A stretch of 49,301 bases of DNA from the UHGV virus genome UHGV-0103780; one strand, given 5' to 3'. The translations under genes were made by a program, and so were the position numbers. The notes beneath the pieces were generated by a model. It was not told the DNA's origin and ran no database searches. It was given only the letters and a program-made list of their open reading frames with translations. Each line of letters starts with the position of its first letter. Within the stretch, counting starts at the first letter, position 1. Positions 24,272 through 25,706 of the stretch are shown here, one piece after another. The DNA comes from a virus.

Positions 24272-24528
24272 GTTGACTATGCGCGAAGGTTAATGTGAAT
24301 AGTTGACTATGCGCGATGTGACTACAGTCAAAAGTTGACTGTAGTCGATTTAACTCCACCAAAGATCGACTATGTAAGATATTGTCGGGAGAAACGTTGA
24401 CTATACGCGATGAAATGCCCCTAAAAGCCATCTCAATAGCGACTTGCAGAATATTGACGCCAGCAAAAATCCACCAGCGTCAACGAATGTCGCCTATAGT
24501 CAACTTCTCGCTATCGCATATAGTCAAT
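24272..24528. repeat. iteron array downstream of repA (incA-like copy-control locus)
   Basis: Seven to eight copies of GTTGACTAT(G/A)CGCGA-like repeats in both orientations (24272, 24302, 24334, 24364, 24396; inverted 24490, 24514). Confidence 0.8.
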
Positions 24529-24529
24529 A

Positions 24530-25450
24530 TTATGGATTGCGCTTATGGATCTGGAAGCCGATTTTCCTGCCGTTTTTTATCTCTGAAAATTTAAGATATT
24601 CAATAGCTTCCAAATCTTTCATGGCTTTTCTGATAACGCTATTTTGCACGCTAACGGATGATTTGAGATTAAGCCTCGCTCTAAGGCGCTCAATGCTGAC
24701 AGGTGCCGGGTTGGCGGGTAGAGCCTCAAAGAATGTATACAGTACCTTGGCCGTCTCTTTGCGCCCTAGTTTATCCAGCATCTTCAGCTTCAGGATTCGC
24801 TTATAGTCAACATAGTAAAGTTCAGATAGCTGTTTCTGCGGCTGGATCTCGATAACATCAAGCTCGGTATTCAGGCTGCTATATGCCAACAAGTTGACGT
24901 TAATGTTATTGAGATGACCTTTTGCCGCCGGGAAGCGGAATTTGACAACTGTCTGCTGAATGCGTGTCAGAGAGTCATCAATACTTTTACGGAACGCCTT
25001 TGAAAGGCGCTTACGTGGATAGCCGCATCGATCGGCAAACTCGGAGAATGGCAGGGTGATTATGCCGTCATCATCAGGTGCGTAGTCAAACAACGCGGAA
25101 GTTATGCCCACCCACACCTTAAAATCAGTATCCATATCCAGGCGTGGACCATGAATTTCAATTCCCTCATAGCCTTCCTGCTCAACAATTTTGAGGCTTG
25201 ATAGTTCTTCAGTTGCGTTCGTTGTGTTTGTTGTAACTGACGATCCGCGACGTAGCGCCACATTGGTAGATTTTAAGGTTGGCACAAACACACCTAAGCG
25301 CAACAAAGCGATGGGTTGTATAGTGCTGTTGTTATTGGGCTTCAGGCTGTGGATTTCTCCTGTATTTCCTGCAACTTCTTCAACGCTAAGGAAGCCTTTA
25401 CTTTCTTCCGGCATCACGGTTTCTCCATGTGTGGCGCGGCCTGACGTCAA
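24530..25450 (-). CDS. repA: plasmid replication initiator RepA (P1 RepA family), 306 aa
   Basis: Flanked by iteron arrays; conserved blocks QPIALLRLGVFVP and GPRLDMDTDFKVWVGI; true start may be the internal Met at 25414. Confidence 0.8.
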   Translation of the reverse strand: MTSGRATHGETVMPEESKGFLSVEEVAGNTGEIHSLKPNNNSTIQPIALLRLGVFVPTLKSTNVALRRGSSVTTNTTNATEELSSLKIVEQEGYEGIEIHGPRLDMDTDFKVWVGITSALFDYAPDDDGIITLPFSEFADRCGYPRKRLSKAFRKSIDDSLTRIQQTVVKFRFPAAKGHLNNINVNLLAYSSLNTELDVIEIQPQKQLSELYYVDYKRILKLKMLDKLGRKETAKVLYTFFEALPANPAPVSIERLRARLNLKSSVSVQNSVIRKAMKDLEAIEYLKFSEIKNGRKIGFQIHKRNP

Positions 25451-25495
25451 TTTGGATGGCTGTTATCAACAGCTGTGAATATTCAGACTCTAAAA

Positions 25496-25595
25496 TCGCT
25501 TACAGTCAATGTTTCTGTCGCGTATAGTCAACAATAAATCGCGTGCAGTCAACAATAAATCGTGCACAGTCAACATAAAATCGCGTATAGTCAAT
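25496..25595. repeat. origin iterons (incC-like): five direct repeats at 21-22 bp spacing
   Basis: TCGCTTACAGTCAAT, TCGCGTATAGTCAAC, TCGCGTGCAGTCAAC, TCGTGCACAGTCAAC, TCGCGTATAGTCAAT. Confidence 0.85.
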
Positions 25596-25598
25596 GTT

Positions 25599-25706
25599 GA
25601 TCCCATTTCAGGCCAGTAATGACGCGGCTTACAGCGATCCGGGATCTTCTTTGGATCTTCCTAGGTTCTCTTTAGGATCTGTTTATTGGATCTATGCTGT
25701 GGATAA
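25599..25706. other. oriR-like origin elements: GATC cluster and DnaA box
   Basis: Six GATC sites between 25599 and 25691, perfect DnaA box TGTGGATAA at 25698-25706, near-consensus TTATCAACA at 25462-25470. Confidence 0.7.

Follow-up and report, generated by a model that had tools for sequence, protein, structure and literature searches.

A p0111-type replicon at the rep position of a P1-like phage-plasmid: iteron map, origin and partition system

The locus described here is very probably the p0111-type replicon with which a P1-like phage-plasmid replicates as a plasmid prophage, and a homologue, though a diverged one, of the P1 oriR-repA-incA replicon. It occupies exactly the P1 rep position, where it replaces the IncY repA. 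The window analysed is a stretch of 49,301 nucleotides from the virus genome UHGV-0103780, and window coordinates are used throughout unless P1 is named. The p0111 replicon is already catalogued, serves as a standard typing target, and is an ordinary replicon rather than a discovery. The open literature that was searched contained no footprint, mini-replicon or incompatibility test on it, no paper joining the terms 'p0111' and 'iterons', and no iteron map; an explicit map of the iterons in the origin and control array is given below.

Identity, distribution and genomic setting

In PlasmidFinder-style typing the usual threshold is 95% nucleotide identity, and the p0111 type is defined by near-identity to a reference rep gene, which the locus shows at 98.5% of nucleotides. 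The repA DNA matches the pO111_2 gene at 872 of 885 nt (13 mismatches; NC_013370.1, strain 11128), and the protein is identical to RepA of pO111_2 at 292 of 294 residues. The p0111 reference is AP010962 (pO111_2, PlasmidFinder; PMC11165635); the host of this plasmid is E. coli O111:H- 11128, and its RefSeq record NC_013370.1 was used for comparison. A database search with the 1561-bp locus returned dozens of E. coli plasmids at 100% identity and a total of 374 plasmid records matching over at least 80% of the query, and among phages it matched SJ46 at 98.3%, JL22 at 98.2%, and RCS47 at 97.7%. JL22 has been explicitly typed as p0111, and the same placement at the P1 rep position was described for it (PMC9603915). 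Two replicase families at this position, together with an inferred replication compatibility, were reported by Pfeifer et al. in 2021 (PMC7969092), and the contrast between p0111 and IncY in P1-like phage-plasmids is likewise published (PMC7969092, PMC11165635).

The p0111 replicon was found in 415 of 5,426 complete E. coli genomes (7.6%, about 1 in 13) and was plasmid-borne at 460 of 468 places, which argues for a working replicon. The family is tight, with at least 97% DNA identity, and the next relative, from Providencia, has 53.5% protein identity; because relatives of intermediate identity are lacking, co-variation of iteron and RepA can be compared only coarsely. The IncHI1B label given to p0111 plasmids by MOB-suite typing was rejected, as it looks like an assignment to a distant family and not like a real IncHI1B replicon.

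To locate the module boundaries, the window was compared with P1 57500-65500 by local blastn, which aligned 19546-23361 at 99.2% and 25612-28300 at 96.0% identity with no match between. The p0111 module (23362-25611, 2.25 kb) thus stands in place of P1 61316-62806, which holds the P1 incA, repA, and incC iterons. Its left junction lies immediately past the par promoter/operator, and on the right P1 backbone identity picks up again at upfA (25750-26142, minus strand), the first P1-backbone gene past the replicon and in the same position as in P1. On both sides of the module, the rest of the window follows P1 collinearly at 97-99% identity.

Inside the module, and absent from P1 and P7, is a 269-aa ORF with a GIY-YIG / T5orf172 domain (23428-24237, minus strand; Pfam T5orf172, E 6.9e-6), which belongs to PHROG 2876, a family of unknown function, and gave no match when checked for a defence role with PADLOC. 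In the phage collection this ORF is present in exactly the 12 records that carry the p0111 replicon and in no others. It is intact here and split in pO111_2, so it is considered dispensable for maintenance. The module could have a more active role than that of a replicon variant, in that such a nuclease, if homing-endonuclease-like, might drive exchange of the IncY module for the p0111 module within P1 genomes, an idea for which the evidence is linkage, the ORF always travelling with the module, and which is considered very unlikely, together with the notion that an iteron within repA and a palindrome at 24318-24349 are extra control features absent from P1. A total of 17 replicon-type switches have been inferred on the phage-plasmid tree (PMC11165635), and a homing-like GIY-YIG nuclease would, if real, account for the repetition of such switches.

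Iterons, initiator and origin

The repeat consensus is (A)TCGCGTATAGTCAAC, which can be written in bipartite form as (A)TCG-N5-AGTCAA(C/T). Allowing up to 3 mismatches to TCGCGTATAGTCAAC, 12 copies were found in the 49-kb window against 1.03 expected, and none of 100 shuffles reached 12; all 12 strong copies are confined to the replicon locus (24272-25595 by pattern search). With a 19-nt weight matrix these 12 sites were recovered again, scoring 22.8-30.5 bits; no other site in the window exceeded 11.4 bits, and the maximum over 20 shuffles was 17.0 bits. On the repA sense strand, TTGACT is present in every iteron.

Five direct incC-like copies lie at the origin, upstream of repA (25495-25598, plus strand; starts at 25495, 25517, 25538, 25559, and 25580), at intervals of 22/21/21/21 bp, as anticipated by the original prediction of two-helical-turn spacing. 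The same prediction placed seven to eight iterons in both orientations downstream, and the control array at 24269-24531 holds 6 strong and 2 weak copies in two orientations. Its distal incA-like block (24269-24411, minus strand), which reads GTTGACTATGCGCGA on the plus strand, consists of four strong copies (24269-24287, 24299-24317, 24331-24349, and 24393-24411) oriented opposite to the origin iterons and a degenerate in-phase copy (24362-24380), with a period of 30-32 bp (about 31). The proximal incA-like block (24469-24531, plus strand) has the orientation of the origin iterons and comprises a weak copy at 24469-24487 and strong copies at 24489-24507 and 24513-24531, the last of which abuts the repA stop codon (24530-24532). 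A head-to-head iteron palindrome was observed at 24318-24349.

The twelfth strong iteron lies within the repA coding sequence (24796-24814, plus strand). It scores 22.8 bits despite its exclusion from matrix building, and it is unchanged in four diverged p0111 replicons. This copy was omitted from the original prediction.

Variation among four p0111 variants was used to assess constraint. No change was seen at 108 positions of the repeat blocks, against 12 changes at 120 other iteron positions (Fisher P = 4e-4), and of 13 variable sites in the origin iterons, the TCG and AGTCAA blocks contain none (P = 3e-4). The two blocks are under purifying selection, and natural variation spares them. Variability is uneven across the locus: 12-19% of positions differ among the variants in the leader, origin iterons, and GATC region, and about 2% in repA and the control array.

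The initiator gene repA (24530-25414, minus strand) encodes a predicted iteron-binding protein of 294 aa counted from an ATG; its ORF extends to a TTG at 25450, and the ATG at 25414, which is also the RefSeq start, is most likely the true one. Aligned end to end with the RepA proteins of P1 and P7, the product is 42% identical over 272 aa (E 1e-70), and it is assigned to PHROG 775. Pfam results were borderline, with Rep3_C at 27.1 bits (cut-off 21.1) and Rep3_N at 21.8 bits (cut-off 22.4), and P1 RepA gave the mirror image of this pattern. Iteron initiators of the Rep_3 class, among them F RepE, R6K pi, and pPS10 RepA, are built of two winged-helix domains (WH1 and WH2), and two DNA-binding domains would suit a bipartite iteron whose blocks lie about 10 bp apart. 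Sequence searches of the PDB with RepA alone and with a profile of four RepA proteins found no solved relative, an NCBIfam search gave no match, and a single-sequence AlphaFold model was unusable (pLDDT 35). A consensus promoter scan found no minus-strand repA promoter at threshold, nor did manual reading reveal a convincing -10 element.

Beyond the origin iterons lies a cluster of five GATC (Dam) sites in (T/G)GGATCT heptamers (25636-25692, 57 bp), the densest in the window; in random placements, at least 5 GATC within 70 bp anywhere in the window occurred in 72 of 2000. A perfect DnaA box, TTATCCACA (25698-25706, minus strand), marks the outer edge of the origin and is one of two perfect boxes in the whole window. 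This cluster and box had been noted in the original prediction, and both were recovered. A further DnaA-box-like sequence, TTATCAACA (25463-25471, plus strand), matches at 8 of 9 positions and lies between the origin iterons and the repA start. All five GATC sites are invariant in the four variants, as are the DnaA boxes, in surroundings that vary at 12-19% of positions (18.8% in the leader around the box at 25463-25471). The GATC cluster is probably the unwinding and methylation-control region.

The following steps are proposed for p0111 by analogy with the P1 mechanism as generally known. RepA monomers activated by DnaK/DnaJ/GrpE would bind the five origin iterons and, with host DnaA at the flanking boxes, would open the adjoining GATC-rich segment. 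Initiation would require Dam methylation of this segment, and the hemimethylated state would delay re-initiation. RepA bound to the origin iterons may also repress its own promoter, and the downstream array would keep the copy number near 1 through titration of RepA and through RepA-mediated pairing ('handcuffing') with the origin.

Partition system and incompatibility with IncY

The parS site, or incB, is a known incompatibility determinant of P1. In the window it lies at 20958-21040 (minus strand) and aligns with P1 parS (NC_005856, 58912-58994); all positions of ParB boxes A and B are identical, and the 5 differences all fall in the spacer and IHF-site region. The adjoining genes are parB (21045-22046, minus strand), whose product is identical to P1 ParB at 333 of 333 residues, and parA (22063-23259, minus strand), identical at 397 of 398 (99.7%); identity of ParA to P7 ParA is 58%. 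The element thus carries a partition system of P1 specificity, with parS, ParA, and ParB all of the P1 species. With ParB matching P1 at 100% and ParA at 99.7%, and with P1 ParB boxes in parS, the third P1 determinant, incB, is retained. The replication determinants stand apart from this: the P1 iteron and P1 RepA that define the IncY rep type are not found, the iteron being different and RepA 42% identical. Because both iteron and initiator differ from P1, incA and incC should not cross-react with IncY. The distinct incompatibility specificity originally proposed would therefore apply to incA and incC and does not extend to incB, as the par system is that of P1. On sequence grounds, p0111 is predicted to be compatible with P1 in replication, and the P1-identical par system should still cross-react, keeping the incB incompatibility. 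With the P1 partition system kept, 'compatible with IncY' would be half the story.

An alternative is full compatibility with P1, in which the swap of replicon would free the element from all P1 incompatibility and let the two stably share a cell. The different iterons and initiator favour this, replication compatibility has been suggested (PMC7969092, PMC11165635), and two complete E. coli genomes do carry both types on separate records. No others were seen in the set of 5,426, where independence of the replicons would predict 27.6 (P ~1e-10), and two hardly exceeds the single genome with two IncY replicons; this deficit is confounded with shared immunity and superinfection exclusion. No single record in those genomes carries both the P1 rep module and the p0111 module (415 + 362 = 777 records), and in Salmonella the 226 carriers divide into 132 with p0111 and 94 with IncY, which leaves no double carriers (PMC11165635). 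Taken with a ParB identical and a ParA nearly identical to P1, the unchanged ParB boxes, and the standing of parS as a determinant, these counts make full compatibility unlikely, and the census cautions against taking a difference in replicon as evidence that p0111 and IncY coexist in nature.

Comparison with IncY, RepFIB and other p0111 replicons

The P1 oriR/incC/incA layout claimed in the original prediction was borne out, as order, spacing, period, and orientation match the annotated P1 and P7 replicons. The shared order is parB-parA, incA array, repA, five incC iterons, five Dam sites, DnaA box, and upfA. The origin spacing of 22/21/21/21 bp is that of P7 incC copies 10-14, and the distal incA period of about 31 bp recurs with the orientation of P1/P7 incA copies 1-6; in P1/P7, too, incA copies 7-9 run opposite to copies 1-6, and it is copy 9 that borders the repA stop. 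Over 25599-25706 the Dam/DnaA part of oriR shows homology, with 73% DNA identity, and the five GATC sites align, three of them positionally conserved. In the leader, the P1/P7 sequence corresponding to the box at 25463-25471 is TGTGGATAG. Differences from P1/P7 are the 9 incA iterons there (6 + 3) against 6 strong and 2 weak copies here, where the proximal block is more compact; two tandem outer DnaA boxes against one intact box here, which aligns with them; and, present here, the extra iteron within repA and the GIY-YIG ORF between parA and the control array. The repeat core was also said at the outset to differ from the P1 iteron, and on the same strand it reads GTTGACTATACGCGA here and GATGTGTGCTGGAGGGAAA in P1/P7, with at most a GTCA(A/G)C core common in register.

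Three other identities for the locus were weighed. Gene order, spacing, and flanking genes match P1 so closely that the replicon might be a plain P1/P7 (IncY) replicon, with the P1 iteron misstated at the outset. Alignment of RepA and the iterons to P1 and P7, named beforehand as the check, gave 42% identity for RepA and a different iteron, with no near-identity in either; the annotated P1/P7 iterons are GATGTGTGCTGGAGGGAAA and not GTTGACTATACGCGA, the iteron region aligns with P1 at 35% identity, and the Dam/DnaA end is the only part that megablast aligns with P7, all of which leaves this identity a negligible probability. Capture of a RepFIB (IncFIB) replicon from an F-type plasmid, outside the P1 lineage, draws on a RepA slightly closer to RepFIB initiators from E. 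coli F-type plasmids (45-47% identity) than to P1 RepA, on some records that name the protein 'RepFIB replication protein A', and on a TGACTA(C/T)A block shared between the p0111 iteron and the pO157-type RepFIB iteron ACTGACTACAGCTTAT. However, an identity of about 46% is far too low to place it in the FIB type, homology to P1 oriR is seen at the DNA level in the Dam/DnaA part of the origin and the iteron phasing is that of P1, the replicon lies at the exact P1 rep position and occurs within the phage collection in P1-like records only, and the nearest other relative (Providencia, 53.5%) carries yet another iteron; such a capture is judged extremely unlikely. The repeats could also be due to chance or serve another protein, with the replicon a vestige that no longer drives maintenance. 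Against this stand 12 copies where about 1 is expected, all at one locus, the purifying selection on the repeat blocks, and a RepA that is intact and near-identical in hundreds of plasmids of about 90-100 kb, and the chance of a vestige is put close to nil.

Its other relatives are the RepFIB replicons of F-type plasmids and further members of the P1 RepA / RepFIB group of initiators, which RefSeq names 'RepB family plasmid replication initiator'. RepA identity is 45-47% to E. coli RepFIB, 48.6% to Klebsiella plasmids, and 53.5% to the Providencia plasmid. In these relatives, too, repA is bordered by iterons on both sides, and part of the iteron block is common (ATCG...TCAAC in Providencia, TGACTACA in RepFIB). 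The RepFIB, Klebsiella, and Providencia replicons differ in having an iteron of their own in each lineage and in residing on conjugative or large plasmids without a P1 backbone, and the Providencia relative has a 14-copy tandem array of 43 bp downstream of repA. The replicons of pO111_2, SJ46, RCS47, and JL22 are the same as this one, have the same GIY-YIG ORF alongside, and show strain-level differences only; the par genes here are those of the P1 species.

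Iteron map of the replicon

The region from 24200 to 25760 was found to contain a single minus-strand gene, repA (24530-25414), with copies of one repeat on either side. A search for the core TCGCGTATAGTCAAC, allowing three or fewer mismatches, located 12 copies in the 49,301-base window, where about one was expected by chance; all 12 fell within 24272-25595, and none of 100 shuffles contained as many. A 19-nt weight matrix, made from eleven copies with one strong copy left out, recovered the same 12 sites at 22.8-30.5 bits, and the maximum scores outside these sites and in 20 shuffles were 11.4 and 17.0 bits, respectively. 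The iteron is bipartite, with invariant T-C-G (positions 1-3) and invariant A-G-T-C-A-A (positions 9-14) separated by five variable positions and bordered by variable flanks, and its two blocks are spaced by approximately one helical turn.

The origin iterons at 25495-25598 are five direct repeats, with starts at 25495, 25517, 25538, 25559, and 25580 and a spacing of 22/21/21/21 bp. A DnaA box matching at 8 of 9 positions (TTATCAACA, 25463-25471) sits between the repA start and these iterons, and a perfect DnaA box (TTATCCACA, minus strand) was located at 25698-25706. The densest GATC cluster of the window, five sites in 57 bp, lies at 25636-25692; five GATC in 70 bp anywhere in the window were reached in 72 of 2000 random placements. 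The control array consists of a distal block (24269-24411), which has four strong copies (24269, 24299, 24331, and 24393) in the orientation opposite to the origin iterons, a degenerate in-phase copy at 24362, and a period of ~31 bp, and a proximal block (24469-24531), in which a weak copy at 24469 precedes strong copies at 24489 and 24513 in the origin orientation, the last touching the repA stop. Within the distal block, a degenerate and a strong iteron are arranged head-to-head as a near-perfect palindrome (GTGACTACAGTCAAAAGTTGACTGTAGTC, 24318-24349). The palindrome recalls operators bound by dimers in other Rep_3 replicons, although its place is in the control array and not at the promoter.

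The twelfth strong copy (TTCGCTTATAGTCAACATA, 24796-24814, plus strand, 22.8 bits) lies within the repA reading frame, overlapping the codons for ...YYVDYKR..., and is unchanged across four diverged variants of this replicon. No iteron is annotated within repA of P1 or P7; a relative from a Providencia plasmid (pPROV040-OXA, L007) does carry one inside its repA (L007 1901-1921), at another position and in another orientation. The most likely start of the gene is the ATG at 25414, which lies nine bases past GGAG and gives a 294-aa product; the RefSeq annotation of identical plasmids uses the same start. No repA promoter could be placed by promoter scan. Repeat search, matrix, and DnaA/GATC map thus bore out the original prediction of a P1-architecture replicon at 24272-25706. 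Its downstream array of seven to eight copies does run in two orientations, with the count amended to six strong and two weak; to the flanking arrays of its inventory, which held, the intragenic copy is added.

The P1 backbone and the replaced segment

Using local BLAST against P1 57500-65500, matches were obtained at window positions 19546-23361 (99.2% identity) and 25612-28300 (96.0% identity), and none at 23362-25611. Since the P1 matches stop at 23361 and resume at 25612, a 2.25-kb segment (23362-25611) replaces P1 61316-62806. Its left junction is directly past the par promoter/operator, and elsewhere the window follows P1 collinearly at 97-99% identity. ParB is identical to that of P1 at 333 of 333 residues and ParA at 397 of 398 (only 58% identity to P7 ParA), and all ParB boxes of parS are the same as in P1; judged from sequence, the partition system is P1's own. 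The partition proteins of phage SJ46 have been described as P7-like (PMC5241659). In contrast to that statement, the 5' end of SJ46 parA and the par promoter were identical to P1 in the alignment, and parA in the deposited SJ46 and RCS47 records has the length of P1 parA, 1197 nt (398 aa).

Within the segment, between parA and the control iterons, lies a minus-strand GIY-YIG/T5orf172 ORF of 269 aa (23428-24237), which P1 and P7 lack. Of 50,697 phage records, exactly the 12 with this replicon contain the ORF; in plasmid pO111_2 it is split. It had no PADLOC match, and its PHROG (2876) is of no known function.

Four p0111 replicons, those of the window, RCS47, SJ46, and a plasmid of E. albertii, were compared, and 75 of 1561 positions differed. 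Evidence for functional repeats came from the twelve variable sites inside the twelve iterons: none lay in the TCG/AGTCAA blocks (0/108), against 12/120 at iteron positions outside the blocks (Fisher P = 4e-4). When the count was restricted to the origin array, none of 13 variable sites occupied the 45 block positions (P = 3e-4). No variation was seen at the two DnaA-type boxes or at the five GATC sites. The leader, origin iterons, and GATC region (25415-25706) were variable at 12-19% of positions compared with ~2% for repA and the control array (24238-25414), a contrast suggesting that recombination breakpoints lie within the replicon or that its parts are under different selection.

Beside the homology, layout, and selective constraint observed, binding, control, and host-factor dependence can be proposed by homology from established knowledge of P1. 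RepA monomers would bind the five origin iterons and act together with DnaA, bound to the flanking boxes, in opening the GATC-rich segment; initiation would be gated by the methylation state of this segment. RepA at the origin iterons would repress the repA promoter, and the downstream array would limit copy number by titration and handcuffing.

Prevalence and incompatibility

Many E. coli plasmids carry the 1561-bp locus at 100% identity, and phages SJ46 (Salmonella), JL22, and RCS47 carry it at 98.3%, 98.2%, and 97.7%, respectively. RepA matches the rep protein of pO111_2 (NC_013370.1) at 292 of 294 residues (repA DNA, 872 of 885), and pO111_2 (as AP010962) serves as reference plasmid for the replication gene 'p0111' (PMC11165635). 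JL22 has been typed p0111 (PMC9603915), and IncY or p0111 replicons have been reported in P1-like phage-plasmids (PMC9603915, PMC11165635, PMC10879196). Given this literature and its presence in 415 of 5,426 complete E. coli genomes, the replicon is the p0111 replicon known from P1-like phage-plasmids, already catalogued and common. No paper with both p0111 and iterons was found in the literature searched, and the iteron map may be undescribed, yet it is a routine inference. PLSDB/MOB-suite labels the p0111-replicon plasmids NZ_CP069684.1 and NZ_CP117651.1 'IncHI1B', where PlasmidFinder gives p0111; the first label seems to reflect assignment within a distantly related family, not a genuine IncHI1B replicon. 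Chromosomal sites in complete E. coli genomes numbered 8 for p0111 (e.g., NZ_CP093011.1 4394086-4395417) and 11 for IncY, consistent with the integrated P1-like prophages of PMC10879196.

The incompatibility determinants of P1 are the iterons of incA and incC and the parS site incB. Because incA and incC are replaced in the window and incB is unchanged, cross-reaction with IncY through replication is not expected, but interference with P1 through partition should persist. Among the 5,426 genomes, IncY (the P1 replicon) was found in 361 and the union with p0111 comprised 774, so that two genomes held both types versus 27.6 expected under independence (P about 1e-10); none had two p0111 records and one had two IncY records. 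The census shows that p0111/IncY coexistence is rare in nature and points the same way as the expected partition-based interference; it is neutral on replication compatibility, as the counts mix replication with partition, shared immunity, and superinfection exclusion. In a Salmonella survey, too, the 132 p0111 and 94 IncY elements add up to exactly the 226 carriers (PMC11165635).

Comparison with P1, P7, and the wider RepA family

The deposited P1/P7 annotation runs parB, parA, nine incA iterons, repA, five incC iterons, five Dam sites, DnaA boxes, and upfA, and the window has these elements in the same order. It also shares the incC spacing of P7 (22/21/21/21), the distal incA period of ~31 bp, the orientation scheme (proximal block like the origin copies, distal block inverted), and a final control iteron that directly adjoins the repA stop. 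Farther out in the origin, 25599-25706 is 73% identical to P1 oriR and is by this alignment a diverged homologue, with three of five GATC sites positionally conserved and one of the two tandem DnaA boxes of P1 intact. Between 25636-25692 and P1 62831-62885, one P1 GATC site is lost (GGGATCTG to AGGTTCTC) and one gained (GGACCTG to GGATCTG), and the count stays at five in P1/P7 and the window despite this turnover.

As had been proposed, the iterons differ from those of P1/P7, and RepA differs as well. Over its full length RepA shares 42% identity with its P1 and P7 counterparts (E 1e-70), the value reported for SJ46 versus P1 (PMC5241659). The P1/P7 iteron is GATGTGTGCTGGAGGGAAA and that of the window, on the same strand, GTTGACTATACGCGA; the origin-iteron regions of the window and P1 are 35% identical in register, with at most a common GTCA(A/G)C core.

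By tblastn, RepA falls in the large P1 RepA/RepFIB family, with almost no relatives between 54% and 97% identity. Rep3_C scored over the Pfam cut-off and Rep3_N slightly under, the mirror image of P1 RepA, a pattern consistent with a two-winged-helix initiator that falls short of proof. RepA of the Providencia plasmid (53.5%) is accompanied by the iteron ATCGTCTAGCATCAAC, which has the outer ATCG and TCAAC in common with the window. Directly downstream of that repA, 14 tandem copies of a 43-bp unit holding an iteron-like core (L007 2267-3108) form a control array far larger than that of P1 or p0111. Klebsiella plasmids (48.6%) and E. coli RepFIB of the pO157 type (45-47%) are more distant, the latter with iteron ACTGACTACAGCTTAT, which shares TGACTACA with the window. 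Each lineage has its own iteron, and p0111 is therefore a separate lineage of the family with its own specificity; differing iterons and RepA, together with P1-type layout and partition genes, support the predicted distinct incompatibility specificity, for the replication determinants, on an otherwise P1-type backbone.
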